A stretch of DNA of 64,000 bases from a virus (Duplodnaviria > Caudoviricetes). The notes below the pieces were generated by a model. That model was given only the letters and a program-made list of their open reading frames with translations, was not told the DNA's origin and searched no databases. The DNA lies in the IMG/VR virus record IMGVR_UViG_3300037483_000352, positions 1 to 64,000 of that record. One strand, written 5' to 3'. The translations under genes and the position numbers were made by a program. Shown one piece after another: positions 17,249-42,364 of the stretch; within the stretch, counting starts at the first letter, position 1, and each line of letters starts with the position of its first letter.

Positions 17249-18915
17249 GCAGGTGGGGAGAACTGATCCCGCACCGGGAGGACGACCCGTCGTGTCTGTG
17301 CGGGTGCCAGGACGAACAGGGAACCACCGAACCGATCGAGCCCCGGACCACCCGGATCCTGGTCACGGTGACATGGAACGACTACGACGAGGACGACCGC
17401 GAGGGGCGCCGGTACTACTACGACGACCGCGTGCTGTTCGACACGGCCGGGGACTGGATCGCTGCTGCGTTCGAGGACCGCGACGACTCGCCTGGGATCA
17501 AGCTCAAGGACGTCACCGGCGCCGATATCGACATCACCCCGGAGGCCAAGCCGTGACGCTCGGAGAACTGGCCGTCGCCCTGCGCGCCGTGGACCGGTCA
17601 CGGAAGATCGTGATCTGTCCTGTGGGGCTGGGACTCAATGTCGAATCCCTGGTCCTGCGATACGGAATGGATCATCTGTGGACCGTCCGCGAGTCGGCTC
17701 GGTGCGGCGACAAGATCCTGTTGATCAACGACATGGGAGCGTAGCGATCATGAACGACACCGACTGGGCATCGATCGAAGACAGCGAGAACGACCACCCA
17801 TACGCACCTGAGAGGCGCACCGTGACCCCACCGCCCGCCGACACGAACGACTTTTTCATGGGCGATCCGCCCGCCGACGAACCGGAGGACGACGGCCCGC
17901 CGTTCATCACGGCCAGGTACGACGGCCCGTGTTCGGCGTGCGAGGAGTACCACATCACTGCCGGTGAGACCCGCATCCGTGCGGACGGCTCCGGTGGCTG
18001 GGAAGCAGAGGGGTGTGCCTGGTGAGGATCAGGACGATTCATCTGGACGACAAGGAGCGGCCGTCATCCGTGGTCGCTGAGATGACCATCGAAGAGGCGG
18101 CGCAGATCGCCAAGTGGGCGGGGTCATTGTCCCCTGACACAGGGATGACCGGTGAGACGTCGGAACTGTACGGCAGCTTGGTCGGCTCTGTGTTCAATCG
18201 GTTCTGGTCGGACGGGGTCGACGGGTACCGGCGGGGTGATGACGAATGACCGGACGAGTGAACCACCAGCGGATCAAAGGCTTCTGCCCGGCGTGCGGCG
18301 GGGCGACGCTCTACCGACGCCAGCGGGACAGCCAGATCGTGTGCTCAGAGTTCTCGTGCGCAGAACCGTTGGCCGCGCACCAGATCCTCGCCGACCGCAT
18401 GACGGATCACGTCGTGCAGTTCCATCCGGGTCAGGGCTTCAGCATCTGGCACCCGCTGAGGGAACGGATCGACCGGCGGATCCTGGTCTGTGATCTTCAC
18501 GCCTGGCTGGAGGACCACCGCCCGTCTGAAGCGGACCGGCCGGGCCAGTACCGCGCTGCGGAGCACGGACCCTACTGGGTGTTCCTGCCCCTGGAATTGG
18601 AAGTGAGGGATGACGATGTCTACCCCGGAAGCTGACCCGGACCACCCGCGCGGCCGTGAGTCCGGCGAGGCGCTGACCGAGGTCCGTACGGTCCTGTCCC
18701 GCGCTGAGTCCGCGCTACGCCGGATCGGCCCGCCCGGTCACGAGACCGAGTGGACCGGGCGTAAGGCCGGAGTCCGAATGGACTACGACGAACGCAAGGC
18801 CGGTCGGCACGAGGACCCGGACGCCGACGCCATGCGCGCCGCCCTTCAACGGGTAATCGATGAGCTGGAGCCGTGGCGCAAGACAGGGTCCACCCGGTGG
18901 ACCACATGCCTGTGA
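17245..18915 (+). other. six hypothetical genes (17245-17556, 17553-17744, 17750-18025, 18022-18249, 18246-18635, 18610-18915)
   Basis: Coupled ORFs; several carry Cys pairs. Confidence 0.55.
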
Positions 18916-18928
18916 GGAGCGAGCGATC

Positions 18929-20716
18929 ATGACCACTGAGACACCCCCGATGTACCCGTGCACGGTGTGCGGCCGGACCGACCTGAAGCTGACACAGCAC
19001 TCCAAGATCCGTAAGCACACATCCAACGGGAAGCGCGCGTCCGAGGACAACCCGCACTGCGCCGGGTCGGGCACCGTGCCCGCTGGCAATGGCGCAGCGG
19101 CCCCGCAGAGCGCGTTCCACGCGGCCCCGGTACCGGGTGACCCTGCCGCCGTGGCAGGCCCGGAGCGGGGCGATGTGGCAACCGCCGGTGACGGCAGCTG
19201 GACCAGCCCGGTTGTCCAGGCTGGCTCGGTACCCGACCAGTGCCCTGGCTGCGGTCATGCCGGGCACTCCGGGATCTGCCGTGAGCTGACCATGGACGGT
19301 CCCCCCGGCGATGTGGACGAGTGCGGCTGCCTGGATGACCAAGAACCTGTAGCCGCCGGTGCCGTGGTACGCGTGGCCGACTGCCGCCAGTGCGATCAGG
19401 ACCTCCACGTGTGCCCCGGGTGTGGTGAGCCGGTCAAGCACGGCGTGACCGTGTGCGCCGACTGCAACGCCCCTGACGTCCATGTCGCGGCTCCCCAGAG
19501 TGCGGCCGGGTCGTTCCTCATGGGCACGGCTCACGACGCGTCAGACGGCTACGGGGACGCCATGGATGCCCTCATGGCGGGCGACCGTCCCAGCGACGGC
19601 ACGGACCAGCTCTACAAGAACGGCCGCTACGCGCTGCCGGACCCGGTCACCGGCGTGCCCCGTACCTGGACGCGGTCCACCACCATGGCCGAGACCCTGA
19701 GCGATCTCTACTCGCTGAACCTGTGGAAAGTCCGCATGGCCATGATCGGGGTAACCCGGTTCCCGGACCTGCTGGACGAGCTGCGGGAGATCGACGCCCA
19801 GGACTCCGACGAGGGCAACCTGTCCCCCAAGGTCCACCGGGAGATCCTGAACCGCGTCGGCCTGCGCGCTCAGGATCTCGCCGGTGCCAAGGTCCCCGCG
19901 AGCTGGGGAACCGACATGCACAACAACATCGAGGCCCTGTCCCGGGACGAGATCACCTTGGACGACGTCCCCGAGAAGTACCGTCGCGAGGTCACCGCCT
20001 GGGCCGCCGCCATGAGCGACGCGGACCTGTCGGCCGTTCCCCACCTGATCGAACGCGTGATCTCCGTGCCCCTGTACGGGGTGGCAGGGAGGTTCGACCA
20101 GATCGACCGTATCCACCGTTCCCGGTCCATCCGGCTCGGCAACCGGATTGTCCGGCTGAACGCCGGTGACCACATTCCAGGTGACGTGAAGTCGGGACGT
20201 GACCTTGATTACGGCTGGGGTGAGATCTCCATCCAGATGTCCCTGTACGCGCACGGCGCGCGGGAGGGCAAGGTCGCCAAGTGGGACCCCGAGGGCGGGG
20301 ACGGCGAGGGCGCCTGGGTGTGGGAGGACATCGGCATCCCGGCCAAGTCCATCCGCACAGACGTCGGGGTGGTCATGCACGTGCCGATCGGCGGGGGTCA
20401 GTGCACGCTGCACTGGATCGACCTGGAGGAGGGGTGGAAGGCCGTGCAGCTCTGTGAGGCCGTCAAGGACTGGCGCAGGGCCAAGGGGCTGCACACCCCG
20501 TTCTCGATTGCCGAGGTGCCCACCGGCGAGGCCGCGCGGCCGGTCGTACGTCAGCCGGACTGGGACGAAAAATTCTCAGGTGTGACCACCACGGACCAGG
20601 CCCGCGAGGTCTATCGCGCCTACCTCGCGGCAGGTGGGTCTAAGGGCCTGGAGCTTGCTCGGCTGGTGGACCTGGCCAAGACCCACCTGCGACAGCTCAC
20701 CGAGGAAAGTGCCTGA
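18929..20716 (+). CDS. PD-(D/E)xK (RecB/Cas4-like) exonuclease with Cys-rich N-terminal extension
   Basis: TWTRSTTMA...WGTDMH...VAGRFDQID...GDVKSG...IQMSLYA, typical of actinophage recombination exonucleases. Confidence 0.8.
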   Translation: MTTETPPMYPCTVCGRTDLKLTQHSKIRKHTSNGKRASEDNPHCAGSGTVPAGNGAAAPQSAFHAAPVPGDPAAVAGPERGDVATAGDGSWTSPVVQAGSVPDQCPGCGHAGHSGICRELTMDGPPGDVDECGCLDDQEPVAAGAVVRVADCRQCDQDLHVCPGCGEPVKHGVTVCADCNAPDVHVAAPQSAAGSFLMGTAHDASDGYGDAMDALMAGDRPSDGTDQLYKNGRYALPDPVTGVPRTWTRSTTMAETLSDLYSLNLWKVRMAMIGVTRFPDLLDELREIDAQDSDEGNLSPKVHREILNRVGLRAQDLAGAKVPASWGTDMHNNIEALSRDEITLDDVPEKYRREVTAWAAAMSDADLSAVPHLIERVISVPLYGVAGRFDQIDRIHRSRSIRLGNRIVRLNAGDHIPGDVKSGRDLDYGWGEISIQMSLYAHGAREGKVAKWDPEGGDGEGAWVWEDIGIPAKSIRTDVGVVMHVPIGGGQCTLHWIDLEEGWKAVQLCEAVKDWRRAKGLHTPFSIAEVPTGEAARPVVRQPDWDEKFSGVTTTDQAREVYRAYLAAGGSKGLELARLVDLAKTHLRQLTEESA

Positions 20717-20912
20717 TCAGCGGCCTGTAAAAATTCGTCTGTAGATCACCAACAACGTTCATGGTTTCCGTAGATACCATGAACCCAAGGGGGTCACCGG
20801 TCCACGGGATCTCCCGCCGGATCACCTGTTGAACCGGCACAACTGAACAGCCGGGCCCCGGTCCGCAGCCGGGGGCCCGGCCACCAGATCACCCAACGAA
20901 GATCGGAAACAG

Positions 20913-21464
20913 ATGTCACACCTGCTCACGAAGGAAGGCGGACCGGTAACGGTCACGTCCCGTTTCGTCGCCGTCACCCTCACGTGGGAGACGTCGACCG
21001 GCGGACAGGGCGGCATGAGTGGCGCCTTCAAGAAGTTCAAGGGCGTGAACCTGGACAACGTCGGAATCCTGGTCCAGGGCACCCGGCCGGTGAACTACGC
21101 CGGTCTGGACAACCTCACCCCCGAGGACGGCGTGAGCCACTCCGGGGACGACAAGAAGGGCAAGCGCCCGGAGACGCTCACGGTCGAACCGGCCAAGGTC
21201 CCCGGTCACATCACCGAGGTACTCCTGTCCGTGGCCGCGTTCCAGCCGGGCCAGTCGTTCCGCAACGCCAAGAACGTCCGGGTCACGATCAAGGCGGACG
21301 AGGACTACGTGATCCAGCCGTCCCTGGTCGGCCACGCCAACTTCATCGGCGCCGCCAAGCTCGTGCGCGCCGGTGCGGGGTGGCAGCTCGTTGTGGTCGA
21401 CGAGCACCGCCAGATCGCACAGGGCGACCGCGATTCACTCGTGCTCGCTGCTCAGGGTATGTGA
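20913..21464 (+). CDS. TerD-family protein
   Basis: LTKEGGP...LTWE...GVNLD...AGLDNL...HSGDDKKG...ETLTVEPAKVP...FRNAKN...QGDRDSL, collinear with Streptomyces TerD-domain proteins as recalled. Confidence 0.8.
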   Translation: MSHLLTKEGGPVTVTSRFVAVTLTWETSTGGQGGMSGAFKKFKGVNLDNVGILVQGTRPVNYAGLDNLTPEDGVSHSGDDKKGKRPETLTVEPAKVPGHITEVLLSVAAFQPGQSFRNAKNVRVTIKADEDYVIQPSLVGHANFIGAAKLVRAGAGWQLVVVDEHRQIAQGDRDSLVLAAQGM

Positions 21465-21525
21465 CCTTCACAGCCCGGCACCACACAATCCAGCAGATCA
21501 ACACATCGGCAAAGGATCAAGTCAC

Positions 21526-22074
21526 ATGACGACAGCACCGCAGGACTCCATCGGCGTTCTGATGCAGGGTGGCGGCCAGGGGGCACAGTTCCCCAAGGTC
21601 GGCCACAGCTACTCCGGCACCATCCTCTCGATCGGCAAGCCCCGGCAGCAGACGGATCTGTCCACCGGCAAGCTGAAGACGTTCGAAGACGGCTCGCCCC
21701 GCATGCAGGTTCCGGTGACCCTGGCTACCTCCGCTCGCGGCAAGTTCGTCCGCGAGGACAACAGTTCCCCGTGGGAGCTGGAAGAGATCCCGGACGACGA
21801 CGGGGTCCGCACCCTGTGGGTCGCCGCCGACATGCAGCGCGCCCTGCGGGACGCGGTTCTCAAGGCCCGCAAGGAGTACGGCCTGTCGGCCGAGCAGCTC
21901 CCCGGCCCGGAGGTCGGCGGCCACCTCACCATGACGCGTGGCAAGTCCAAGGCCAAGAAGCAGGCCGGATGGTCCGGGCAGCACACGTTCGACGCGGTGT
22001 ACGTGCCCCGGTCCCAGAACGAGGGCGCTCAGTCGATCATGGACGACGCGGACCCGTTCGCCGACGGCGAATGA
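21526..22074 (+). CDS. single-stranded DNA-binding protein (actinophage type)
   Basis: GGQGAQFPKVG...QQTD...DGSPRMQVPVTLAT...DDDGVRTLWV...VGGHL, acidic tail DDADPF; follows the exonuclease. Confidence 0.7.
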   Translation: MTTAPQDSIGVLMQGGGQGAQFPKVGHSYSGTILSIGKPRQQTDLSTGKLKTFEDGSPRMQVPVTLATSARGKFVREDNSSPWELEEIPDDDGVRTLWVAADMQRALRDAVLKARKEYGLSAEQLPGPEVGGHLTMTRGKSKAKKQAGWSGQHTFDAVYVPRSQNEGAQSIMDDADPFADGE

Positions 22075-22125
22075 CGGACTCCCCGCCCGTCCTTTCTGAC
22101 GCCAGGGACGGTCGGGGTGCATAGC

Positions 22126-22167
22126 CGGTGGCCCCCTTATGACTAGCCCGTCGTAAGGGGGCCACCG
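22126..22167 (+). terminator. 18-bp-stem hairpin, putative terminator, within a hairpin cluster
   Basis: CGGTGGCCCCCTTATGAC-TAGCCC-GTCGTAAGGGGGCCACCG just downstream of the SSB gene. Confidence 0.6.
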
Positions 22168-22292
22168 TGCACCACAGCGGGGTCGCTGGGCTCCGCAGGG
22201 GACCGGGTGGGTGCCCGCGTACCACCCCGGTTCCGTACCGCGCTCAGACGGCCGCACAGACATTTCGATCAAGTAAGGACTTGAGGTTGATC

Positions 22293-23869
22293 ATGCGTAA
22301 GAAGGACAAGCCGGAGACGCCGCGCCAGGCCGGTACCTGGCAGAACACCAAGACCAAGTACCTCGCCGCCGGGCTGTGCAACGGGTGCGCGGGGCAGGCC
22401 GCGTACGGCCACCAGATGGGCTTCCACCGGATCCACGCGCCCTGCCCGGACGATGCGGGCAGGACCCTGCCGGACGCGCTGACCGCGCGGCACGGCGACC
22501 GTGGCGCGCGCTGGCTGCGCGGCGAGTTCCACCTGGTAACCGAGCAGGTGGCCCGATGAGGGAAGAAATCTGGGTCCTGATTGACACGGTGTCCACGCTT
22601 CACGAGGTGGGTGTCCGGGTGTGTGGCACCACCAAAGATCACAACATGGCGCGTGACTGGTCGTACTCCCGGCCGACGCGCAACGCGATCAAGGTTCCCA
22701 TGAATGGCCTCGCCGATGGCGAGGTGCTGTGACCGTGAACGGCGAACGGCCCAAGGGCGGACGGCGGCCCGAGGACTTTCCCGAGGCGAGGGCCCGGGAC
22801 AGGGCGGTCCTGGAGTACGTGCGGGACGATCGGTACGGACTGCCGCACCTGCGCAACAAGGCCACCCGGAACATGATCGCGTACGACCTGGACGAGGACA
22901 ATCCGCGATTGATCAGCCGGTCCCTGGAACGGCTCAAGCGCCGGGGACTGGTCCGGCACGTAGCCAAGGGCAACGAGGGACACGGCTACTGGGTCGCGGT
23001 ACGCGACGGTGAAACGACCGAGGAAGGAGGGCAGGAGCGATGAGCAGTGAGACCGAGGGCCCCCGGTGCGGAGCGTCGATCCTGCGCCCCGGTGGGGGGC
23101 GCCGCCGGGCATGCGTGCTGGCCGCCGGTCACTACAACGGCCCGGCAACCGGGACCCATCTGGGCCAGCACGCCATGACCGATCGCGAGAGCTGGCACAC
23201 GGACTGCCCGCAGGTGACCGGTATGAACCGGCCGCTGGACGACCACGATCACCGCCACCTCGGGGGAGTGCCGCCGGAGACGTGCATGGTGTGGGCCGAC
23301 ACTGCCGACGGCGCCACACCGTCCGAGGTGACGGTCAGCCAGCCGGATCCCGACTCCGAGATCCGTAAAGGGACCGGCCGGACCGTGACGGATCTGGGCA
23401 ACTACGAAGCGACCGTCATGATCGGCGGCGCCAGTATGCGGGCGCGCGGCCCCGCTCGGTTCGTGGCCTACCTGGTCCGCGAGTTCGCGACCGCGTTCGA
23501 AGAGGAGTCGGAGCGATGAACTGGAAGATCTTCCGGCAGCGATCGGTCACGTACACCCCGACGCTCCGGACCTCCGTACATCCACCGGAACCCCCGCCCG
23601 CCGTGCTGCCGGTTCACAAGATCCAGGTGACCGAGGGCATGAGCCACGACGAACTCAAGAAGATCGTCCTCCCCGAGGGTGCGCGCGTCGACCCCGGACC
23701 GCTGCCGGTCGAAGCTCAGATCATCCTCCGGGTCATGGGCGAAGACCTGGCCACGGCGGACGAACTGATCAAGGGCATGCGGCCGGTCGACCGTGCCGTT
23801 CTGGTCTTCTACGCGGACGAGATCCACAACAGGGTGAACAAGATCAACGAAGACGAGGGGAGGTACTGA
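22293..23869 (+). other. five hypothetical genes (22293-22559, 22556-22732, 22729-23043 wHTH-like, 23040-23519, 23516-23869)
   Basis: 4-nt overlaps throughout; 22729-23043 has LISRSLERLKRRGLV, which is wHTH-like. Confidence 0.55.
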
Positions 23870-23871
23870 CC

Positions 23872-24369
23872 ATGCTGACCATGACCTTGGCAGGCGGACA
23901 CGACCACGTGGTCACGCCCGGGGACCTGGAAAGGTTCTGGGTGAAGGTCGACAAGTCGGGTCCCGTCCCGCCTGCGAGGCCAGATCTCGGGCCGTGCTGG
24001 TTGTGGACAGCAAAGATCAATCAGTACGGGTACGGGGATTTCGGGCTCCGGTCGCGGTTGGTGAAAGCTCATCGACTCAGCTATACGATCTTGGTCGGCA
24101 GCATTCCGGACGGCTTGACGTTGGACCACTTGTGCCGCGTTCGAAACTGCGTGAACCCCCGTCATCTGGAAGCCGTCACCCAGCGCGTGAACACGCTCCG
24201 AGGTGACGGGTTCGCGGCTGATCACGCTGCCAAGACCAAGTGCCCGAATGACCATCCGTACGACGAAGCCAACACCTACGTGAGCAATGTCAACGGGAGG
24301 CACTGCCGTACCTGCCACAGGGACCGCGAACGAGCCCGTAAGAGGGAGATCAGGAAGAGGGGTGAGTGA
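23872..24369 (+). CDS. HNH endonuclease
   Basis: RFWVKVDK...CWLWTA...GYG...KAHRLSY...LDHLCRVRNCVNPRHLEAVTQRVN. Confidence 0.92.
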   Translation: MLTMTLAGGHDHVVTPGDLERFWVKVDKSGPVPPARPDLGPCWLWTAKINQYGYGDFGLRSRLVKAHRLSYTILVGSIPDGLTLDHLCRVRNCVNPRHLEAVTQRVNTLRGDGFAADHAAKTKCPNDHPYDEANTYVSNVNGRHCRTCHRDRERARKREIRKRGE

Positions 24370-25469
24370 CCATGTCGGATCGGCGCGGTACCCCGGCGTA
24401 CGTGCAGCGGATCATCACCGCCATTGCAGGTGTCTTGACGGTCTTCCTGACGGCCGTGGCGTTCTGGCTATCATTTGAGCACCTGCACGACGTGGCCGCC
24501 GACCATGGTCTGTCGGGGGTCCGCGCGTGGGCATGGCCTGCCACCCTGGACACGTTCATCGTGATCGGTGAGGTGCTGATCCTCCGCGCGTCGATCGTCC
24601 AGAAGGTGGACGCCTGGGCGTGGTGCTGCGCGGCAGCCGGGTCCCTCGGTTCGATCACGCTCAACGTGGTCGGGGTCGGGGCCGACGCCGGGGCGCTGGA
24701 CTACACCGTCGCCGCCGTTCCTCCGGTGGCCGCGCTGTTCGCCTTCGGGATCCTGATGCGTCAGTTGCACCAGGCGCTCGCGTCGTACATGACCAAGGCC
24801 GACCCGGTGGACGTCATCGCTGGTGCGTTCGATGTCCCCCGGGACCTGATCATGGGAGACGCCGATGGGGGTCCGGAGCCTGAGTACGACGCGTCAGGAC
24901 TGCCGGTCAACGATCGTCCTGGGGACGAGGAAACGACCGGCATGGACGCCGGTATCGGCTACCTCCGGGGGACACCGATCGACGTGTCCGACGCCGTTGT
25001 CCCGGGCGCTTGGGACGAAGAGATGCGTGCCCGGCTGGCATCCCTGCCGGACGCGTCCTTGTCCCTGGACCTGACTCCGTACCCGGTCTACGCGGACAGT
25101 GTCCCCGCGCGGCCGACCGTGGCCCCGGTCAACGGGACACCCCGGCCGGGACATGTCCCGGACAGGGGACACGGGGACACAGCCGCGCGGGGACAGACGG
25201 CCGTCTCCCGGCCTGTCCCCGGGACAGGGGACACGGATGCCGGGGACATGGGGACAGGCCCCGGACAGTCCCGGACAGTCCCGGACAGTCCCGGACAGCG
25301 CCGGACACGGGCCGCCCGGACAGGTCTCACCCAGCGGGTCAGGGACATGTTGGAGATCAACCCCGGTATGACCAACGAGGACGTCCGGGACGCGTGTCCC
25401 GGCGACAACCCGGACAGCGTCAAGAAGTCGATCAGCCGGGTAAGGAGGGAGCTGGGCGAGACAAGCTGA
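24366..25469 (+). CDS. DUF2637-like membrane protein (Streptomyces plasmid Spd-type) with repeat linker and C-terminal HTH-like region
   Basis: AFWLSFEHLHDVAA..GL...AWAWPATLD...SITLNV...VAAVPPVAALF, four predicted TM segments; PDSPGQSRTV repeats. Confidence 0.8.
   Translation: MTMSDRRGTPAYVQRIITAIAGVLTVFLTAVAFWLSFEHLHDVAADHGLSGVRAWAWPATLDTFIVIGEVLILRASIVQKVDAWAWCCAAAGSLGSITLNVVGVGADAGALDYTVAAVPPVAALFAFGILMRQLHQALASYMTKADPVDVIAGAFDVPRDLIMGDADGGPEPEYDASGLPVNDRPGDEETTGMDAGIGYLRGTPIDVSDAVVPGAWDEEMRARLASLPDASLSLDLTPYPVYADSVPARPTVAPVNGTPRPGHVPDRGHGDTAARGQTAVSRPVPGTGDTDAGDMGTGPGQSRTVPDSPGQRRTRAARTGLTQRVRDMLEINPGMTNEDVRDACPGDNPDSVKKSISRVRRELGETS
25090..25420. repeat. dense GGGACA/CCGGACAG repeat tract, including (CCGGACAGTC)x3
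   Basis: About 20 GGACA copies by eye in ~330 bp inside the CDS. Confidence 0.85.
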
Positions 25470-25524
25470 CGGACCCCGGGGGCACCGCGCCCCACATGAT
25501 CGAACCTGAGCGAGAGGCACCATC

Positions 25525-26013
25525 ATGGCGACACCGCCTGTAGCACCGGCCAAGAAGGCCACCACACCGCGCAAGACCACCACCGGCGGATCCCGCCCCG
25601 TGCCCGAGGATTCCGGACCGGTGTCCAGCGGCAGCGACAAGCTTGACGCTCTCGTCCGCGCGCTGGACGACGTGGAGCTGTCCGACCAGCACTCGCTGAA
25701 CGCCTTCTGCGAGGCGCTCCGCAAGCTGGCCAGCCGCCTGGCCGTGGAGACCGCCATCGGATCCGGGCAGCTCACGGCCGGAGCCAAGGTCATGGCCAAG
25801 GGCACCGGTAACCCGCTGCTCATGGGCCTGGACGTCCGGCTCAAGATGCGCAAGGTCACCAAGGCACTGGACTCCGCGAGTGACCACCTCGGGGACGCCG
25901 CAGCCCAGGCCGTCACGGCATGGTCCGTGTTCGAGGCCGAGTTCGAAGAAGCCCTGAACAAGTCGGCCCGGAAGGCCGCCACCCCCAGGGGCTTCACGAT
26001 CAAGGAGGACTGA
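25525..26013 (+). CDS. plasmid transfer protein, TraA-like
   Basis: SLNAFCEALRKLASRLAVE...RLKMRKVTKALDSASDHLGDAAAQAVTAWSVFEAEF; lies immediately upstream of traB, as on Streptomyces plasmids. Confidence 0.65.
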   Translation: MATPPVAPAKKATTPRKTTTGGSRPVPEDSGPVSSGSDKLDALVRALDDVELSDQHSLNAFCEALRKLASRLAVETAIGSGQLTAGAKVMAKGTGNPLLMGLDVRLKMRKVTKALDSASDHLGDAAAQAVTAWSVFEAEFEEALNKSARKAATPRGFTIKED

Positions 26014-26015
26014 CC

Positions 26016-28061
26016 ATGGGCAGGCAGGGCGTCCGACGTGGACCAGTGAGGACCCGGGGGTTCGGGCTCGGAGAGCTGGCAGGCTCCCGTGTGCTCCCGT
26101 ACCTGGTGCCCTGGCTGCTGTGCGTCCTGGCCATGCCGGTCGCCCTGCTTGCCCGCTGGCGCTGGGGGGACGACCCCCGGATGACGGCGGTCATGGGGGC
26201 TACGGCCGTGTTCCTGTCCGGCATGACGTATGTCACCTGGGGACGCCGCCACCGGCACACCCGGAACACGGCGACCCTGGTTGCCGGGGTCGTCCTCGGG
26301 TGGACAGCCGTTGCTGTGTCCGGGGATCCGTTGTCCCGGGGGACACTGGACGCGTGGATCATCGGGACAGTCATCGTGTCTGTCTCCTGGGATGTCCGGT
26401 ACGCAGCATGGTCTGTCCCCCACGAGGAGGACAAGTCGGGGGACAACGAAGATCCTTTGTTCAGCCGGATCAAGTCCCTGAACGGCGCGAGGACAAAGAA
26501 GATCAAGGAGACACCTGGACGGGTCGAGGCGCAGATCCGGCTGAAGCCCGGGGAGCACACGATGTCCGAGGTCCAGGGGGACAAAGAGCGGATAGCTCAG
26601 ATCGTCGGCATGGGGACAGAGGACATCACGGTGACCGGTGTCCCGGGACACGCGGACACCGTGACCATGTCCTTCCAGTTCGCCAACGGGCTGCGCCGGT
26701 CGATCTACTGGAACGGCCCGTCCATGGCCGGTGGCTCGGTCTATGACGCGCCCCTGCGGCCGGGCATCCGGGCGGACGGAAAGGATCTGGCCCTATGGCT
26801 GTGCGGGGACAGCTCCGCAGACCCCGTGCGGCAGCTCACCCATTGCCTGGCTACCGGGGTGACCGGATCCGGCAAGACGGAGACGGTGAAGACCGTGATC
26901 CTGGACGGCCGGTGGCGCCGGGACTTCGTTCCGATCGTCGCCGACCCGGCCAAGTTCAATCAGTCGTTCGGGGACATCAAGGAGTGCCTGGAGCTGTACG
27001 CGGACGGTCCGGAACAATGCGCCCGGCTGGTCCGTAATCTGAAGGACACGATCCTGTACCGCGCACAGATCTTCGGGGAGCTGACCAGGTCGGACGGCAC
27101 CCAGGGCTACTCACAGTGGGAGCCGGAGCTGTGGACCCTGCACGGCATCCCCCTGGTTTTCATCGACCTGGAGGAGGCCGCCGACCTGGTGGACTCCGAT
27201 CTCGATGATCCGGTCCGTAAGGCCCGGTCAGTCGGGATCTTCCTGTGGGTGTCGCTTCAGACGGCGATCTTCCAGAACCTGGACCGCAAGACCCGGGGGC
27301 AGTTCGGGCAGTCCGCGTGCCACGGAATGAACGAGATGCAGGACGCCAAGTTCGGACTGAACGCCAACACGATCAACGCCGGGGCCGACCCCACGAAGTG
27401 GGGAGCGGACAGCGCGGGATCTTTCTACGCGGAGTTCACCGGGACACCGAAGAACGAATGGCCGGTGGATGCGCGTGCGTACGCCTGGGGACGCAACGAG
27501 TCCGAAGCCAGGCAGGCCCGGCGCGCGGAGATGACGGCGTCCCGGGACGCGGGTGTCTGGGCTGTCCTGGACGAGGGGACATCCGACTATCTGTCCCGTG
27601 GGCTGTCTGTCCCCTGCGGGGACACAGCCGCTGTCCCCTGCGGGGACACCACGACTGTCCCTGTCCCGGGGGACACGGGGGCGGGATACACCGCGACTGT
27701 CCCGGCAGGGGACAACGAGGACAAGATCACCCAACTGAAGGAAAGGCCCGAAGTGACACAGGAGATCGCACCCCCGAAGCACGACGTCGTGTTCTCCCTG
27801 GGTGTCCCCCAGAACGACGTGACCACCGAGCAGGCACGGAAGATCATCGAGGACAGGATCGACGAGATGGAGGCCGGTGGCCGGGACATGGTGGGCTACC
27901 GGGACATTGCCGACCTGGCCGCCAAGTGCGGACGCCGCCGGTCGTGGCTGTACAAGGAACTGGCGCGGCTGGTCGAGGCCGGACGGCTGGAGCAGGGGGT
28001 GAAGCCGCCATACCGGATCAAGCCCCGTATCCAGAACGGGCACCGGGTTCCGGTGAGCTGA
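26016..28061 (+). CDS. traB: TraB-like FtsK/SpoIIIE conjugative DNA translocase
   Basis: N-terminal TM segments, Walker A GVTGSGKT, Walker B IDLEEA, VSLQTA, C-terminal wHTH (GRRRSWLYKELARLVEAGRL). Confidence 0.88.
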   Translation: MGRQGVRRGPVRTRGFGLGELAGSRVLPYLVPWLLCVLAMPVALLARWRWGDDPRMTAVMGATAVFLSGMTYVTWGRRHRHTRNTATLVAGVVLGWTAVAVSGDPLSRGTLDAWIIGTVIVSVSWDVRYAAWSVPHEEDKSGDNEDPLFSRIKSLNGARTKKIKETPGRVEAQIRLKPGEHTMSEVQGDKERIAQIVGMGTEDITVTGVPGHADTVTMSFQFANGLRRSIYWNGPSMAGGSVYDAPLRPGIRADGKDLALWLCGDSSADPVRQLTHCLATGVTGSGKTETVKTVILDGRWRRDFVPIVADPAKFNQSFGDIKECLELYADGPEQCARLVRNLKDTILYRAQIFGELTRSDGTQGYSQWEPELWTLHGIPLVFIDLEEAADLVDSDLDDPVRKARSVGIFLWVSLQTAIFQNLDRKTRGQFGQSACHGMNEMQDAKFGLNANTINAGADPTKWGADSAGSFYAEFTGTPKNEWPVDARAYAWGRNESEARQARRAEMTASRDAGVWAVLDEGTSDYLSRGLSVPCGDTAAVPCGDTTTVPVPGDTGAGYTATVPAGDNEDKITQLKERPEVTQEIAPPKHDVVFSLGVPQNDVTTEQARKIIEDRIDEMEAGGRDMVGYRDIADLAAKCGRRRSWLYKELARLVEAGRLEQGVKPPYRIKPRIQNGHRVPVS

Positions 28062-28069
28062 CCATGGTC

Positions 28070-28157
28070 CGTCCGGGGGACGTCCAGATCATCGGGCGTC
28101 CCTCGTCCGGGGGATGTTCCGTTTCGTCCACCGTCCCTCGTCCGGGGGATTGTTCCG
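28070..28157 (+). repeat. three CGTCCGGGGGA direct repeats downstream of traB; candidate clt
   Basis: Copies at 28070, 28104 and 28139; the last two extend to CGTCCCTCGTCCGGGGGAT(T)GTTCCG. Confidence 0.6.
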
Positions 28158-28247
28158 GAACAGATCACATCTCCCACCTAGGTATATCCGTGCGGAACAC
28201 GCCGCACGTCCACGGTCCGCGTCCAGCGGGCACCCAAGGAGACAACC

Positions 28248-29476
28248 GTGAAGATCAAGACTCGCAAGCTCAGCAAGATCATGACGGAGGTCCGGTGGTT
28301 CACTCACGCGCTGGTGGCCGCTCTTCTGTTCATCCCCGTCGCCGGGCTCGTTCCGGGGGACAGCGTCAACCTGAACGTGATCGGATCGCTGGGTCTGATC
28401 GCCATACTGGTGGCCGCCGACCTGGCGATCACTGTCCCCCTGTCCCTGTGGCTGCGGAGGCTGAACCGCCCGGCGTTCGTGCCGGTCCGCAGCTACGCCA
28501 AGAGGTGACCCGCAACCGTCGCCGGACCGGGCGCAAAACCCGGTCCCGCGCAACCCTGATCATCGTGGTCGGCCTGTTCCTTCTGGCCGTGGTGATCGCT
28601 GATGAGATGGGACTGACGAACCACTCATGAGCGGAGTGAATGGAACCATGCCTGACACCCTGCACCCGGCGGATGCCGAGTACTTCCGGACCCTGGCCCG
28701 GAACGCCGATCCCCTGTACGGGATGATCAACCTCGTCCGGTTCCAGGACAGGCTGATCGTCACCATGGCCCCCACCGTGGGGCTGATCAACCCGGAGATC
28801 CTTTTCCATGACCGGGTCCGGGGTGTCCGGGTCCACGGAGACCTGATCGAACTGTGCGACCAGGTGACCTACCGGATCACCGGGTGGGACCCCGACCAGA
28901 AGTCACTGATCGTTCTACTGGAGGCTGATCACCGATGACCGATGACCGGAAGGTGATCGTCCCCACGTCGGTCGACTCACCGACACAGAAGATCCACCTG
29001 ACCGCTTCCGATCTTGCCCGGCTGAACCAGGTGCCGGACGGGATGATGCCGGGCGCCCGGCCGGTCGTGATCAACGTGGTCCAGCAAGATCCCCCGGCCG
29101 ACCGTCAGTACCGGGGTGACGATCTTCTTCGGAGGTTCGTCCCCTACTTCGTGATCACCATGATGGGTCTGGTGATCGTCGGTGGCCTCGCGGCGATCCT
29201 GGGTCTGGTGGTCCCGGTGATCATGGCGGGCATCCTGTCGATCGTCGCGTCATTCGTGTCGATCATCATGAGCCTCGTTCTGTCGATCATCGCCGGGGTC
29301 GTGATCGCGCTCGGCATCGCGTACTGCCAGACGGTCAACATCAAGAACAAGGGCCGATGAGCGCCAGGCACCGGCGACCGAACAAGATCAGGGCCGCAGT
29401 GAAGGGGATGATCCTCTTGGCTGCGGCCCTGTTTTTGATCTTGGCTCCGGCCTGGACTCTGATGTCCATGCGCTGA
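28248..29476 (+). other. five small, mostly membrane, genes (28248-28508, 28505-28630, 28627-28938, 28935-29360, 29357-29476); Spd-like spreading functions likely
   Basis: Coupled ORFs after traB; four have hydrophobic TM stretches; 28935-29360 has the Pro-rich then long hydrophobic layout of SpdD-like proteins. Confidence 0.6.
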
Positions 29477-29541
29477 GCCATGCATAATTTCCCGGCCGAA
29501 GATCAATGTCCGTTTTTCCCGTATCGTGAAAACCAATGTTC

Positions 29542-29642
29542 GTGATCACGCCCCTGGCCTGCGGAAATCCCTAACCCAAAGTGGGTGGTACGCGGGTACC
29601 AGGAAGGGGGTCCAGGCCCGCAGACGGGCGTACAGAGCTTTT
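29542..29642 (+). repeat. dispersed composite repeat, full copy
   Basis: GTGATCACG..CTGGCCTGCG-N30-GGGTACC-N20-CAGACGGGCGTACAGAGCTTTT. Confidence 0.8.
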
Positions 29643-30340
29643 AAGTACCACTGTTTGTACCGCGCTTCCCCAGCATAACTACTCACCCCCGTGCATAAGT
29701 TGTTGGAGAACGCCATTTCCGCATGGTGGAAATGCCGGCTTTCCGATCTACGAAAACGCCATTCTCCACGTGCCGGGAAACGGTCCGGCCGGTCCCCTTG
29801 CTCCCGCGCTCATGTCCCCGGGAGCGCGGGTGAGTTGACCCCTCCAGAAAACTTTCTAAAGAATCTTGACGAAACCTATTGCATCCCCCGAACGGGGGGC
29901 GCACATTGGAGACACAACAAAACAACGGGTGATCGGCCCCGAAGATCCAAAATCGGACGTCGCACAGGCCACCAGGCCTCGTGATCACCCGGAGCCCCCG
30001 GACGGCGGGGGCGGGCCTTCGCACCGGGCCCCGGAAGTTCATCAGGTGGAGACGGCCTTACCGAAGGGCCCCAAAAAATCTTCGTAGATCCAAAGGGAAC
30101 GGACCGGGTACCCCGGACGGTCGCGATCATCACCCCCGCTCACGCGGACCGGCGATCACGGCACATGGGTGATACGGAAACCCACTACCGGCGGAACGAC
30201 AGCTCAAGGATCGCTAGGAGTTGATCCGGTGGTGACCATGCGACCCGGTACCTCGTGCCGGATGGACACCCAGGGGAACAACCCGGAACGATCAAGGCGG
30301 GCATGATCTGGTGGTAGGTCCCATCGGGTGTCCGCAACAT

Positions 30341-30417
30341 GGCACGGAGGCGATAGACACCGGCACTGGAAGCCGGGACCGAGAGGCGCCTAGCGGGTTC
30401 GGATCCCGCCCCTGCCA
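30341..30417 (+). other. tRNA-like element (degenerate tRNA or pseudogene)
   Basis: Acceptor GGCACGG/CCCTGCC-A with one mismatch; T-arm GCGGG-TTCGGAT-CCCGC; stem CCGGC-ACTGGAA-GCCGG; D region only 12 nt; 16-nt variable region. Confidence 0.6.
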
Positions 30418-30970
30418 CTGATCACCGGTTGCCAGGAACGATGGGTCACGAACCCGGGAAACAAACAGGCACGGTGTGATCAACCACTAATCATCCGGTC
30501 AACCCGAGGAGCCGATCATGGCGAACCGCCAGGAGATCTTCCGGAAGGGATTCACCTACGTGATCACCCGCCGGATCGTCCAGCGGAAGACGTCGACCGT
30601 CCTCCGGGTCCGGGTCACCGCATACAAGGGCATGGCCATTCGCAGCAAGACCCCGGAGTTCAACGAGTACCGCGACTACGCCAGCATCGCCGAGGGCGAC
30701 ATGGTGTACGCCCGTCACATCGACAAGATCAACAAGTGAGGTACCCCATGTTCCAGATCACGGTCACCGACAGCACTGACCTGCTGGGTATCCGCACTGC
30801 CAGGACCGCCTCCGAGATGGAGGACGTTGTCACCGCGCTGCACAAGGAGTTCCCCGGGGCCCACGTCGACGTCAGGACGTTCGCTCAGATCCAGGCCGAG
30901 GACGACTACCTCGGTCGTCAGGAGACGCTGGCCGACGCAGCAGCCTGGTACGACATGGACCGCTGATCGA

Positions 30971-31026
30971 TGATCTCCGCTCGGGTGCGCGTCCCAACGG
31001 ACGTGCACCCCCTGAGGCTGATCACC
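30971..31026 (+). repeat. 56-bp intergenic hairpin element, copy 1
   Basis: 48/56 identical to 31750-31805; 12-bp stem GGGTGCGCGTCC/GGACGTGCACCC. Confidence 0.8.
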
Positions 31027-31749
31027 GATCAACCACCCCGTCCGGACCTACCAGGGAGCTGGCCATCATGACGAACGAGCTGACCAAGGATGAGTTCCTG
31101 AAGATCCACGGTACGCCGACTGCGGCCGTATGGGTCACCCAGAACAGTCACCCGGCCAGCCGGACGGCCTACCAGGAGATGACCATCGGGTCCGTCGTGT
31201 GGGCCAGGGTCACCGTGAACGGCCGGGAGATCGTCAAGCCCCGCCGGAACCTGGACCTCGTGCACCAGGGCTACAACAACCTGGTGAACCAGGCCATCAG
31301 CAGTTACGAGGACTGATCATGGACCCCGCGACCGAGATCAAGAACTTCGCCGCCGCGTGCTGCGCGGTCGACATGATCGACGAACTGCCCCACGCCGACG
31401 CGGACAGGGACGCGATGATCCGCGACCTGGCCTCGTACGGACCCGCGATCCAGAACCGCAACCACGACGACAAGGACTGATCATAATGTCTGACACCCGC
31501 ATCCGCTCGCGCAACGTAGCGGTCGACGACACCGCGTCCCTCCACTACGACCAGGCCACCATGACCGGGACGGTCACCATGGTGGTCCGTCACACATCCG
31601 GCCCGCGCATGGGCCGTGTGGCGAAGATCCAGCTTCGTCCGGCGAACGCGTCCCGGTCCATCATGTGGTTCGTCCCCGCGCGGGACGGTGACCACTGGAA
31701 CTCGGTGGGCGGGTACGTCACGGCCACGTTCTGAATGATCGCGTATCCA

Positions 31750-31805
31750 TGATCTCCACTCGGGTGCACGTCCTCCGGGACGTGCGCCCCCTGGGGCTGA
31801 TCACC
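31750..31805 (+). repeat. 56-bp intergenic hairpin element, copy 2
   Basis: Stem GGGTGCACGTCC/GGACGTGCGCCC with a different loop. Confidence 0.8.
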
Positions 31806-32352
31806 AGACACCCCGCTCCGACCACCAAGGAGTGACCATGACCGACACCAAGATCCCCACCCCGCTGCGCCCCGGAGACAACTGGGTGCCCAAGGTGTAC
31901 GCGAACGGCACCTACACCACGGCCGACGGCACTGAGGGTGTCGAGGTAGCCGAGCACACCGAAGAGGCCGTGTGGTTCCGCTACCACAACAGCGACTACA
32001 CGTTCCCGGTGACACCGTCCGAATGGCCGCACCTGGCCGACGCGATCAGCTTCCCGGTGGCCACGTGGGGCCTGCGCTACTCCCGTATCTACGACTGACA
32101 CACCACCCGGCCGGGGGTCCATCCGGCTGGTCCCCGACGCTTTCACCGGCGCCGGGGGCGCGGCGGTCATCACACTGGCGAGGGCCCCCCGGGGGCATGA
32201 GGGCCTGTGATCATCGCGTACAACCCACCGGCCGGACATGCGACCGTGATCACTGACTCGCTCCCGCACCTGGGCATGCGACCCGATCACACCGACTCGC
32301 TTCCGGCCGGTGGCCCCCGTCATGCATCACCCGTTCAATCGTAGGAGCGACC

Positions 32353-33558
32353 ATGCAACTCACCATCCGCAAGGGATCCCTTCAGGACCTGGCTGAGGAG
32401 CTTCAGGAGCAGCAGGACCGGAAGGTCGACCTGGTGGTCCCGGCGTCCAAGCTGTGGTCCCGTAACGGCAACGTCCTCGTTGCCGGGCACGGTGCACCGA
32501 AGATCACCAGCGATGGTGTCACCGCGTCGAACCTCGAACTGGCTCCGTCCCGTGTGTTCGACAACGGCATGGTGTCCAAGCTGTCCGAGGTCGGCCGCCC
32601 GCTCGGTCAGCGGTTCATCACCGGCCTGCGCGAGACCGGCCGGACGGACATCATCGACTCGGTGTACAACGGCCTGCTTCACGGGAACCGTGAGCTGGGT
32701 GCCCCCGGCGACCCCCGGTCGTTCTTCGTCCGGACGTTCTCCGGGCGGGAGCCGGTCGGTGCCGACGACCCCGGGACCCTGGGCTACGCCCGCGCGGTCC
32801 TGTCCGACAAGTACCGGCCGATCGACAACCTTGACGTTCTGATGACCGTGATCAAGGGTCTCCAGTCCGCCGGGTTCTCCGCGCACACCGTCCGTCAGGC
32901 CGACCTGACCGACGACAAGATGTACCTGCGTATCTCGGTCCCCGAGATCACCGCGCTGGCGCCCGGTCTGCTGCACGGCTACACCTCGCCCTACGGCGGG
33001 GCGCGCGGTGCGGACAACCCGGTCGTTGAGGCGGGCATCGTGATCTCCAACTCGGAGACCGGGGGCGCGGCCTTCACGATCACTCCCGAGCTGGTCATCC
33101 GGATCTGCACGAACGGGATGACGATCAAGAAGGACATGATCCGGAAGACGCACCTCGGATCGAAGATGGAGGAGGGTGTGCGCGTCAGTCAGCGCACGCT
33201 GGACGCCAACCGCGAGCTGGTGGCGTCGCAGACCCGGGACGCCATCGAAACGTTCCTGGACGTGGACTACATGAACCGCGTCCTCCGACAGATCGAGTCG
33301 GGGTCGGACGAGAAGATCGACGACGTGGAAAAGGCCATCGAGGTGGTCACGTCCCGCGCCGCGTTCAGCAAGTCCGACACGAAGGGTCTGCTCGCAGCGT
33401 TCATGGACGGGGGCGACCGCACGCGCGGCGGACTGGTCAACGCCGTCACGGCGTACAGCCAGTCGCTGGATGACGCGGACCGCGCGTACGAGATGGACGC
33501 GGACGCCCTTCCGGCGGCCGGGTTCGCCAACGTGTCCGGCCTGGTGGCCGCACGCTGA
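32353..33558 (+). CDS. DUF932-family phage/plasmid protein
   Basis: ARAVLSDKYRPIDN...KMYLR...AGIVISNSETGGAAFTITPELVIRICTNGM...HLG. Confidence 0.75.
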   Translation: MQLTIRKGSLQDLAEELQEQQDRKVDLVVPASKLWSRNGNVLVAGHGAPKITSDGVTASNLELAPSRVFDNGMVSKLSEVGRPLGQRFITGLRETGRTDIIDSVYNGLLHGNRELGAPGDPRSFFVRTFSGREPVGADDPGTLGYARAVLSDKYRPIDNLDVLMTVIKGLQSAGFSAHTVRQADLTDDKMYLRISVPEITALAPGLLHGYTSPYGGARGADNPVVEAGIVISNSETGGAAFTITPELVIRICTNGMTIKKDMIRKTHLGSKMEEGVRVSQRTLDANRELVASQTRDAIETFLDVDYMNRVLRQIESGSDEKIDDVEKAIEVVTSRAAFSKSDTKGLLAAFMDGGDRTRGGLVNAVTAYSQSLDDADRAYEMDADALPAAGFANVSGLVAAR

Positions 33559-33643
33559 TGGTGTGAGCCATTGATCATGGTGACCGGGGGTCCTTCGGGT
33601 TCCCCGGCTGCCATGGCCAATCGATCACACAGGAGGAGAGATC

Positions 33644-34721
33644 ATGCCCAACCCGATCCCTCGGTACAGCGTCGGGACCGAACGGCCCAAGGGCTATCCG
33701 GTACTGAAGACCACCGAGCGACAAACCACGGTCCGGGTGTACCGGACCCGGCATGCGGCGCAGGCCGTTGCCGACACCCTGAACCAATGGGCCGGACAGG
33801 AGCGCTGATCATGGCCGCGAAGATCACCGACCCCGCCGACTTCGAGACCACCTCGTTCGGCTACTTCGAAATGCTGGCCTGGGCCACCTCGGACACCGGA
33901 GGTGGCCTGCCGGACGTGTCCGCGCGGCCGTTCGCCGCATGGCTCGACGGCGTGTGGAATCAGTTCGACGACGGGTCCGGCACCCAGACCAACGAAGACG
34001 TCCTGAAGGGTGCCCTGTCGGACTGGACGGGGGGCCGGTCATGACCGGCGTCGATACAGAGATCTACTTCACCCGTTCCGCGTACTGGGGGTCCGACGTC
34101 TGGTTCGCCCACGTGTCCGGGCGGGATCTCGGCAGGGTGGCGCGGTGCTCCCGGTTCGGTGCGTGCTGCACCGGGTGGCACGGATGGCCCGACCAGTACC
34201 CCGCGTCCGGAAACGACCCGGACGCCAACAAACCCACGGTGCGCGGAGCCCGGACCCGGCGGCATGCCGCCGAACTCCTGCGTGACCGTGCCGACCACCC
34301 CGAGGAGTTCCGGGATGTCTGAGCCCTACGGATGGACCTACACCGAGGACGGCATCAATCGTCAGGTGAAGATCCACACCACCCGCGACGGATGCACGGT
34401 CGTATGGGCCCCTCGGTTCGTCGGGGACCCGTACCCGTGGTTCGACGCCGACCGCGCCGAGACCGACCCGTCCGCGTACTACGGGGACGTCGACCTGATC
34501 ACGCTCGGGGTGCCGGTCACATCGTGGTCGGGGTTCGACTCATGACCTTCGACGTCAACGACCTGAGTCAGTTGCCGGACCCTGAATGGTTCGAAGACCC
34601 CCCGGCATGGTTCCTGTACTTCGTCCACCGTCTGTCGGCCGACACCAGTGCAGGTGGGGTCCGGGACGCACTGGAGAAGATCAGTCCCTCGGGCTCCGTT
34701 CCGGAATGGTTCGACGCCTGA
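33644..34721 (+). other. five small hypothetical genes (33644-33808, 33811-34044, 34041-34322, 34315-34545, 34542-34721)
   Basis: Coupled ORFs with RBSs. Confidence 0.55.
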
Positions 34722-34863
34722 CCCACCATCGGGGCCGTACGCGAGGCCCATGCCATGTCCGTCCAGGCCCCTGGCTGCCGCTGTGGCGGCCGGGGGCCGC
34801 TAGGTGGGGAGGTTGTTCCACCGTGGTCCTGTTCGGCCCTTACGGGCCCGTACAGGGCCCCAA

Positions 34864-34935
34864 GGGCCCGTAGCTCAGCGGTAGAGCCCCTGCGTAGCAA
34901 GCAGGCGCGCGCTGGTTCGAATCCAGTCGGGTCCA
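34864..34935 (+). tRNA. tRNA-Ala, anticodon AGC
   Basis: Full cloverleaf: GGGCCCG/CGGGTCC-A (G3:U70, A73), D-stem GCTC/GAGC, anticodon arm CCTGC-GTAGCAA-GCAGG, T-arm GCTGG-TTCGAAT-CCAGT; CCA not encoded. Confidence 0.88.
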
Positions 34936-34953
34936 CGCATCGAGGAGGTGCCC

Positions 34954-35228: not shown

Positions 35229-35263
35229 GCATGACGGCCGCCGGGAGCCGTAATCCCGCGCAC

Positions 35264-35335: not shown

Positions 35336-35387
35336 CGCACGACGGGCCACAAGGCCAGTTGATCTCAACCGGAAGGGGACGCCGTCC

Positions 35388-42316: not shown

Positions 42317-42364
42317 GGGTACCCGCTCGCGGGGTGAGGCCGTCAGACGGCCGTACAGAGCTTC
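42317..42364 (+). repeat. dispersed bipartite repeat, short copy
   Basis: GGGTACC-N20-CAGACGGCCGTACAGAGCTTC. Confidence 0.75.

Follow-up and report, generated by a model that had tools for sequence, protein, structure and literature searches.

To our knowledge, TraB transfer is the only conjugation system that moves unprocessed double-stranded DNA (dsDNA) with a single pump, and it has so far been ascribed to plasmids and to integrative elements that a GntR repressor keeps in check. One Streptomyces element, pZL12, is said to be a plasmid-phage. All conjugative Streptomyces plasmids encode TraR, and traB and traR form a kil-kor pair (PMC4447253). TraB of plasmid pSVH1 recognizes repeated short words via a winged helix-turn-helix (wHTH) domain at its C terminus (PMC4447253). 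Thoma et al. (2015) pointed to SpdB2 homologues on the actinophages phiC31 and VWB, and proposed that these might assist the spreading of phage DNA (PMC4447253). Here, we analyze a 64,000 bp window of viral DNA, the first 64 kb of the 88,083 bp IMG/VR virus record IMGVR_UViG_3300037483_000352 (alias G000), and find at positions 24366–29445 an intact TraB-type dsDNA translocation module that has long been resident in a phage lineage. Support comes from gene identities, protein fold, conservation, synteny, selection on motifs at the DNA level, and the absence of GntR, integrase and ParA genes. We hold with moderate confidence that the module is functional and under phage control, and that it moves phage dsDNA between hyphal compartments or cells; the timing of its expression, the pairing of its proteins with motifs, and any transfer itself are what we infer.

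The preliminary description of this stretch proposed a complete Streptomyces-type conjugation module inside a tailed phage, with DUF2637, TraA-like and TraB genes. All three genes were found and are confirmed by profile matches, and they form an operon of the pWTY27/pFP4 type (DUF2637, TraA, TraB, small membrane genes) on a molecule that also carries virion genes. The genes of the module are listed here (aa, amino acids; TM, transmembrane; GC3, G+C content at third codon positions; G and L numbers are our handles for related genomes and loci).

24366–25469, + strand: DUF2637 (SpdB2-like) membrane protein (PF10935, E = 1.9e-12; three TM segments predicted)
25525–26013, + strand: TraA-like soluble protein, 162 aa (NCBIfam plasmid_TraA NF041213, E = 4.6e-13)
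26016–28061, + strand: TraB, 681 aa (NCBIfam plasmid_TraB NF041214, E = 2.5e-110, profile positions 4–634 of 639)
28248–28508, + strand: Spd-like protein, 86 aa, two TM segments (GC3 0.90; homologues after traB in L073 and L040)
28627–28938, + strand: 103-aa protein of no family (GC3 0.83; homologue not found in related loci)
28935–29360, + strand: Spd-like protein, 141 aa, three TM segments (GC3 0.87; homologues at the same place in G002/L063, L043 and L040)

The start of traB, initially put at 25920, is replaced by the ATG at 26016, which lies 2 bp after the traA stop and behind a strong Shine-Dalgarno sequence, AAGGAGGA. Of the five small genes proposed downstream, three stand, with coding-type GC3, whereas five as a count does not. 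The start of the last gene overlaps the stop of the one before it. An open reading frame at 28114–28251, which overlies direct repeats, has no support and was rejected as a gene. The TraA-like protein has homologues in 21 related loci, and the one on L073, 63% identical, carries PF28214 TraA-like.

The DUF2637 protein consists of an N-terminal domain with three TM segments, a low-complexity linker, and a C-terminal three-helix domain. In an AlphaFold2 model, the last 75 aa form a three-helix bundle with a predicted local distance difference test score (pLDDT) >90. This C-terminal domain matches no Pfam family, and its Foldseek matches are non-significant (E ~1) and mostly to HTH or wHTH proteins, so a DNA-binding role is not established. 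TraB has the layout first proposed for it, namely TM segments, a Walker A motif (GVTGSGKT, aa 281–288), a Walker-B-like motif (VFIDLEEA, aa 381–388) and a wHTH, the last predicted from conservation and the model only. Both catalytic motifs are conserved across 17 aligned members. Seventeen family members went into the AlphaFold2 model of TraB. Its quality is moderate (pLDDT 64), and it shows four helices at the N terminus, a P-loop core, a linker that is disordered, and a compact domain at the C terminus. In the family alignment, this linker is hypervariable; its pLDDT in the model is <35. When the model was compared with the PDB using Foldseek, FtsK motor domains took all ten top places (E = 7e-7 to 6e-6), and TcpA, a conjugation coupling protein, and EccC came next. 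A PDB profile search with TraB reached FtsK only at E = 0.003.

The ATPase groups with TraB proteins and not with packaging ATPases, as anticipated. No terminase match was obtained for TraB in Pfam and PHROG profile searches, and the record has its own TerL. Chromosomal FtsK is set aside because TraB has no Pfam FtsK_SpoIIIE match and matches the TraB profile over its full length; the trees were built without chromosomal FtsK. In these maximum-likelihood trees, 35 members form one group (SH-aLRT 98–100), including those of the window, the viral genomes G001 and G002, the plasmid pS1D4-14.2, and S. africanus. This clade is separate from TraB of pWTY27, an S. canus plasmid and pFP4, from chromosomal copies in Embleya and Yinghuangia, from Tra of pSGRIFU2, and from Tra of pSLE1, which resembles a type IV coupling protein (T4CP). 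The trees are midpoint-rooted and have some long branches, so we claim separation but not direction. TraB and TraA of the window are homologous to plasmid_TraB and plasmid_TraA, but TraB belongs to a separate clade. We also considered pSGRIFU2 as a plasmid-phage and rejected it, since it proved to be an ordinary linear plasmid in which GntR lies next to Tra.

How does the locus compare with the described systems? The element pFP4 (NC_017833.1; Chen et al. 2012, Plasmid 68:170, cited in PMC6950372) is a Streptomyces plasmid-phage. Like the window record, it combines TerS/TerL, portal, capsid and tape measure genes on one replicon with genes for DUF2637, two small proteins and an FtsK/SpoIIIE protein of the TraB type, in the same order. 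Unlike the window record, it is 41 kb long, has a GntR gene heading the transfer operon, and encodes ParA, a tyrosine integrase and a plasmid primase with an iteron. Its TraB is ~28% identical and falls outside the window clade, and the strongest repeat cluster of pFP4 is formed by the replication iteron and not by a DUF2637-gene array. Even so, pFP4 is a closer architectural precedent than pZL12, which the preliminary description had named. Our comparison with pZL12 rests on its relative pSLE1 and on citing papers; pZL12 has been called a singleton among actinophages (PMC7157519). The precedent stands insofar as pZL12/pSLE1, elements of ~86–90 kb, carry tra and virion genes together. However, pSLE1 uses a different, T4CP-like Tra, which sits beside GntR and adjoins the terminase gene. 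In addition, pSLE1 has ParA/ParB and two integrases, and a tblastn search with the window TraB found no match in it.

The plasmids pWTY27 (PMC3583192) and pSVH1 provide the closest models for the transfer genes themselves. In pWTY27, where the TraB homologue is named traA, the order is DUF2637, (small gene), TraA, TraB, as in the window. It differs in being a 14-kb plasmid with a divergent GntR gene, a lone capsid-like gene as the sole virion gene, and a TraB of 26% identity. The pSVH1 order spdB3-spd79-spdB2-orf108-traB (PMC4447253), which we compared by description only, likewise brings together a large membrane Spd protein, a small protein and TraB, with coupled small genes; in contrast to the window, it is under the control of the GntR protein TraR (kil-kor), and SpdB2 is reported to bind DNA non-specifically. 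The phages phiC31 and VWB, as reported, have an SpdB2-like gene only, whereas the window has the whole set with TraA, TraB and arrays of short motifs. The differences from the known systems are a separate TraB clade, the lack of kor, par and int genes, placement of the module in the replication block, and far larger arrays.

It could be argued that the block is merely a passenger or an artefact, either a piece of plasmid that was captured recently and does nothing for the phage, or plasmid and phage contigs wrongly joined. Its plasmid-type genes are flanked by a mobile HNH gene, and GC (0.62–0.70 across the window) is slightly lower after the module, with a small drop after 28 kb. We consider this very improbable. 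A second assembler (Logan) gave a 41.5-kb contig that is identical to positions 18000–36000 and has a flat depth of ~15, and the arrangement is syntenic in relatives at only 38–70% protein identity; an assembly chimera was rejected on these grounds. Furthermore, conservation extends to the catalytic motifs, the clade is monophyletic and of old standing, and the motifs discussed below are under selection at the DNA level. The earlier observation that tape measure and lysis genes share a molecule with the tra genes thus holds, with the former annotated in the record and contiguity provided by the second assembly.

Relatives of the element are numerous. Viral contig G002 (66 kb) is syntenic from polymerase, helicase and TraB through tail, tape measure, capsid and portal to terminase, at 38–65% protein identity. 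Genome G001 (87.8 kb, rated complete) has common replication genes, with TraA 46% and TraB 49% identical; its virion genes differ. In L073 (88.7 kb, from another sample), TraB is 70% identical and the order is helicase ... TerD ... DUF2637, TraA-like, TraB. A large protein database holds >120 clusters of this TraB family at ≥38% identity, and the longest contigs are nearly all 60–97 kb, none of them megabase-sized. In IMG/VR, 31 contigs carry this TraB; 29 could be searched as whole records, and of these, direct terminal repeats occur in 10 and completeness is rated at 90% or more for 21. Clade members were also found in four Streptomyces isolate assemblies, on contigs of 54–96 kb (92–96 kb in three isolates), and on pS1D4-14.2, a 98.8-kb plasmid of a cultured Streptomyces, with a TraB of 38% identity. 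By annotation, pS1D4-14.2 also carries terminase, portal, capsid, tape measure, tyrosine integrase, ParA and XRE regulator genes. The contig of Streptomyces sp. NRRL S-455 (L033/L037, 95,726 bp) begins and ends with the same 99 bp, which indicates a circle of ~95.6 kb. Matches to the terminase family phrog_9 in the Streptomyces isolate genomes were rejected as virion genes of the clade; they sat on other contigs. When 50,697 phage records were searched with the module at the DNA and protein levels, nothing was returned (TraB tblastn, E = 1e-5), which left no isolated phage to compare it with.

The lack of a repressor, remarked on at the outset, extends to the whole record: no GntR domain (PF00392) is found in its 88,083 bp. 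Of 29 related viral records, 25 likewise lack GntR, and in the other four it lies ~40 kb from traB. In pWTY27, pFP4 and pSLE1, a GntR gene heads the transfer operon. Because plasmid transfer operons carry GntR/TraR, we take the absence of Kor as a real departure from plasmid systems. Expression of the module presumably follows the phage program, without a GntR-type Kor. One regulator-like gene lies upstream.

22729–23043, + strand: transcriptional-regulator-like protein, 104 aa (phrog_2440, E = 3e-6; homologues upstream of the module in L073, G002 and L049)

Genes for lysogeny and partition are missing as well. Domain searches of the record found no Phage_integrase (tyrosine), no large serine Recombinase and no ParA; a single weak CbiA match is the P-loop of the helicase, and the sole ParB-like gene lies in a DNA-methylase cluster. 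G001 and G002 likewise lack tyrosine integrase, large serine recombinase and ParA. Among the 29 related records, nine have a tyrosine integrase and five have ParA. Eleven of the 21 that are at least 90% complete have neither, and five of these have terminal repeats.

These results bear on the possibility that the module serves only a plasmid-prophage state. In that case, the element would be a temperate phage-plasmid like pFP4/pZL12, kept extrachromosomally by functions that our searches did not recognize, and TraB would carry out ordinary hyphal conjugation of the resident prophage between strains, as the preliminary description proposed. Members of the same TraB clade in cultured Streptomyces fit such a lifestyle, since pS1D4-14.2 has ParA, tyrosine integrase, XRE and virion genes, and the contigs of 92–96 kb in three isolates include the circle with the 99-bp end overlap; pFP4 and pSLE1 show the same combination. 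On the other hand, the window record, complete G001 and syntenic G002 have no tyrosine integrase, large serine recombinase or ParA, 11 of the 21 near-complete relatives are without tyrosine integrase and ParA, and the window element has been seen in metagenomes only. We regard this explanation as rather doubtful, although it is the main rival to the one we favor.

Under the explanation that we favor, in which a phage-controlled TraB/Spd module moves phage dsDNA, TraB hexamers in the membrane would load onto repeated motifs on phage DNA. TraB and the Spd-like proteins would then drive phage dsDNA through the cross-walls of hyphae and possibly into other hyphae in contact with them. Such pumping would let the phage spread without virions. 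In a widespread lineage of complete tailed-phage genomes, the entire module is retained with its cis sites in the replication block, without a repressor, which suggests that phages of mycelial bacteria may routinely own a second, virion-free route of spread. This would bear on how infection spreads in a Streptomyces colony, on the bypass of receptor-based resistance, and on module exchange between phage-plasmids and conjugative elements. The motif arrays offer testable DNA–protein pairs, and the cultured Streptomyces that carry clade members make the question tractable.

The most distinctive feature of the module DNA is the hexamer GGGACA/TGTCCC. There are 47 copies in 24833–28441, where 3.7 are expected (Poisson P = 3e-35), compared with 72 in the other 84 kb of the record. 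Most fall in three arrays.

24833–25400: motif array 1, 18 GGGACA/TGTCCC in the linker-coding part of the DUF2637 gene
26332–26976: motif array 2, 11 GGGACA/TGTCCC in the 5′ third of traB
27441–27906: motif array 3, 15 GGGACA/TGTCCC, 11 of them in the traB segment encoding the disordered linker and 4 in flanking coding sequence

The traA gene contains zero copies. Copies occur on both strands and in all three frames, and encode differing residues. When synonymous codons were shuffled with the protein held fixed, the observed counts (18 versus 4.2 ± 1.7 for array 1; 26 versus 6.1 ± 2.0 in the other comparison) were reached by none of 2000 shuffles, and two control genes showed no excess. This excess above synonymous shuffles indicates that selection acts on the DNA. 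The idea that the motifs are mere peptide repeats was ruled out by the frames, strands and codon shuffles.

We also scanned each element, in an unbiased way, for the 6-mer that clusters most strongly. In each of six elements, the top cluster lies in or just upstream of the transfer module, and each element has its own word.

Window record: GGGACA, 24 copies in 1.5 kb
G001: CGGACA, 39 copies in 1.5 kb
G002: GAGACG, 33 copies in 1.5 kb
S. africanus contig: GGGACA, 48 copies in 1.5 kb
Streptomyces NRRL S-455 contig: GGGACA, 50 copies in 1.5 kb
pS1D4-14.2: CGAAAG, 18 copies in 1.5 kb

In 29 of 31 viral loci, the top 6-mer cluster begins 1.3–2.4 kb upstream of traB, and therefore within the membrane-protein gene. 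G001 (L010) has a third cluster of the array word C[GT]GACA at ~32–33 kb, with 17 copies in 1 kb, ~32 kb from its transfer module.

It is also conceivable that the pump has been repurposed for a task inside the host and not for transfer to other cells, for example to distribute phage genomes under replication along the multinucleoid hypha or to bring them into spore compartments, much as FtsK/SpoIIIE segregate chromosomes. TraB has the FtsK motor fold, the arrays resemble the FtsK/KOPS logic of many oriented short words, and the module sits among replication genes. However, the motifs lie on both strands without clear polarity, and the genes that accompany traB (for DUF2637, TraA and small TM proteins) are typical of operons for the transfer and spread of plasmids. 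We think this explanation unlikely as it stands; it also overlaps with intramycelial spread, from which it would be hard to tell apart.

A second type of repeat is found around the end of traB. In 11 loci, a CTGACA cluster of 4–9 copies lies no more than ~300 bp from the stop of traB. Such a cluster is missing from the window, where GGGACA occupies the 3′ part of traB and direct repeats lie in the spacer that follows.

28070–28158, + strand: direct repeats after traB (perfect 19-bp pair at 28097 and 28132; partial copy at 28070)

By position, these repeats are a candidate cis-acting transfer locus (clt), by analogy with the footprinted clt of pWTY27 and the CTGACA clusters of the 11 relatives. 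The clt of pWTY27 bears repeats and starts inside the 3′ end of the pump gene, and its word TGACACC is near the CTGACA of the relatives and the GGGACA(C) of the window; it has 4–5 copies, versus 47 motifs in the window module. As a control, our scan applied to pWTY27 recovers the replication iteron and the footprinted clt (TGACACC, 9805–9842). By analogy with pWTY27 and pSVH1, the wHTH of TraB should read the repeats next to traB.

What might read the larger arrays? In pWTY27 (L070, 6043–7243), CCGCGA occurs 21 times inside the DUF2637 gene, distinct from the clt footprinted by TraB. In the S. canus plasmid (L071), CTGACA is found 8 times directly after traB, and CGCGAC 34 times at 7830–9030, in a 407-aa gene that lies downstream of traB; this array, too, is distinct from the footprinted kind of clt. 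We know of no description of the arrays in either gene. Across the relatives, the array word varies with the type of C-terminal domain in the membrane protein whose gene holds the array.

NGGACA-type words: the domain class found in the window
CTGAGC: a C-terminal domain matching Sigma70_r4_2 and HTH_24
CGAAAG and GAGACG: two other domain types

One exception is L048, which has the same domain class as the window and the word TCCGGA. The comparison involves a small sample uncorrected for kinship, and is a lead, not a result. The arrays may nevertheless be a second recognition system, because the word changes with the domain type while the post-traB CTGACA repeats are nearly constant across relatives, and because similar arrays are present in the pWTY27 DUF2637 gene and the S. 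canus 407-aa gene. We tentatively put forward two linked ideas, which we think possible and would not yet bet on. First, phages of this clade, ~76–91 kb in size and lacking int, ParA and Kor, would push replicating DNA via TraA, TraB and Spd proteins through septal cross-walls and into neighboring hyphae during productive infection. Second, the DUF2637-gene arrays would not be a TraB clt but a second system, read by the C-terminal helical domain of that protein and tethering DNA at the translocon. If the first idea is true, this would be virion-free cell-to-cell spread of a bacterial virus, a counterpart of the movement proteins of plant viruses.

Several caveats weigh against a functional transfer module under phage control. 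Unregulated TraB is toxic (PMC4447253), so in the absence of Kor the module may act in another way, or its expression may be confined to doomed cells. The function of the TraB clade is read from sequence and models only. The missing Pfam FtsK_SpoIIIE match (at E = 0.01) counts here too, and both proteins score under the NCBIfam equivalog cut-offs (TraB, 370 versus 800 bits; TraA, 49.6 versus 80 bits). The traB-internal arrays are not common to the 70% relative L073, in which array 2 was not seen. The record is classed as linear in IMG/VR, has no terminal repeats and has a CheckV completeness of 82%; hence, a regulator or lysogeny gene could sit in the missing portion. The element is known only from a sediment metagenome. 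A second sequencing run (X2, soil) contained a 0.06 share of words, in short diverged pieces only, and supports no habitat claim. Finally, a consensus scan for sigma-70 promoters and terminators performed at chance level, and missed a long-loop hairpin that folding confirmed.

That hairpin closes the block, and the presumed transcription unit can be outlined from its junctions.

23872–24369, + strand: HNH endonuclease (PF13392, E = 4e-10; phrog_826, E = 1e-51)
29389–29445, + strand: hairpin with U-run (RNA fold −44.6 kcal/mol, z −6.6, 0/200 shuffles as good; inverted repeat I1), probably the intrinsic terminator of the unit

As noted early on, the first module gene overlaps the HNH stop: this stop and the GTG start of the DUF2637 gene share GTGA at 24366–24369. 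The HNH gene is missing at the equivalent place in L073, G001 and G002, and is probably an insertion specific to the window genome. L073, the 70% relative, lacks HNH, yet its DUF2637 gene is tightly coupled to the preceding gene. A tie between the module and the recombination operon had been proposed. The module is indeed on the same strand as the helicase and exonuclease genes and downstream of them, an arrangement kept in six compared elements, but the HNH junction is genome-specific. In these six elements, traA and traB are on the same strand, downstream of genes for helicase, exonuclease and a phrog_1911 protein, and because this arrangement is common to all six, the link of the module to the replication/recombination block is ancestral. 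From gene spacing alone, we infer that the module may be co-transcribed with the recombination genes. The SF2 (superfamily 2) helicase of L073 (1–2512) carries an intein (Hom_end_hint and a faint LAGLIDADG match), and the window helicase (15509–17248) has none.

A dispersed element of ~100 bp also delimits the unit. Its five copies, at 9729–9779 (−), 22217–22265 (+), 29594–29642 (+), 42317–42364 (+) and 50497–50544 (−), align with one another, sit at module boundaries, and have the invariant blocks TCNCT, GGTACC, CAGACGG and ACAG. Two of them bracket the unit that holds the transfer module.

22217–22265, + strand: copy of the dispersed element, GGGTACC ... CAGACGGNCGYACAGAGCTT, at the head of the transcription unit holding the module
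29594–29642, + strand: the next copy, directly after the terminator

Judging from these positions, the element may be a phage promoter or regulator site that marks phage-controlled transcription units.

The record as a whole belongs to an ~88-kb tailed phage of a mycelial (filamentous) actinomycete, probably one of the Streptomycetaceae. Its virion genes and lysis gene are as follows.

51798–52997, − strand: amidase/LysM endolysin
59973–63995, − strand: tape measure
Beyond the window, same record: TerL (phrog_9, E = 6e-57)
Beyond the window, same record: portal, protease-capsid fusion and head-tail adaptor

Replication genes in the record encode a family A polymerase, a primase-polymerase, an SF2 helicase, an exonuclease and a TerD-domain protein. 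The TerD-domain protein (window 20913–21464; L073 5597–6178) is kept in the replication block upstream of the module. L073 additionally encodes a DUF397 protein, and TerD and DUF397 each suggest a host of the Streptomyces type. The portal shares 54% identity with the portals of Rhodococcus phages REQ1 and Shagrat, and a plasmid search with it gave no match. The portal gene (G000 71665–74073, − strand; L002 7665–10073) encodes 802 aa, of which a C-terminal extension of ~350 aa is unmatched in related phages. The capsid gene (G000 68979–71534, − strand; L002 4979–7534) encodes an 851-aa protein in which maturation protease and major head protein are fused. PF10145, tried as a universal tape-measure marker, proved poor and missed the window's own tape measure. 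Beside the tape measure, 56011–59973 (− strand) encodes a 1320-aa protein with no Pfam or PHROG match, 58% identical to a G002 protein at the equivalent place; it is presumably a tail or host-recognition protein. At G000 78424–80255 (− strand) and 85650–87290 (− strand), the record also encodes a ParB-like protein coupled to a DNA methyltransferase and an amidotransferase-like gene, as well as a Ro60/TROVE-like RNA-binding protein (phrog_850).

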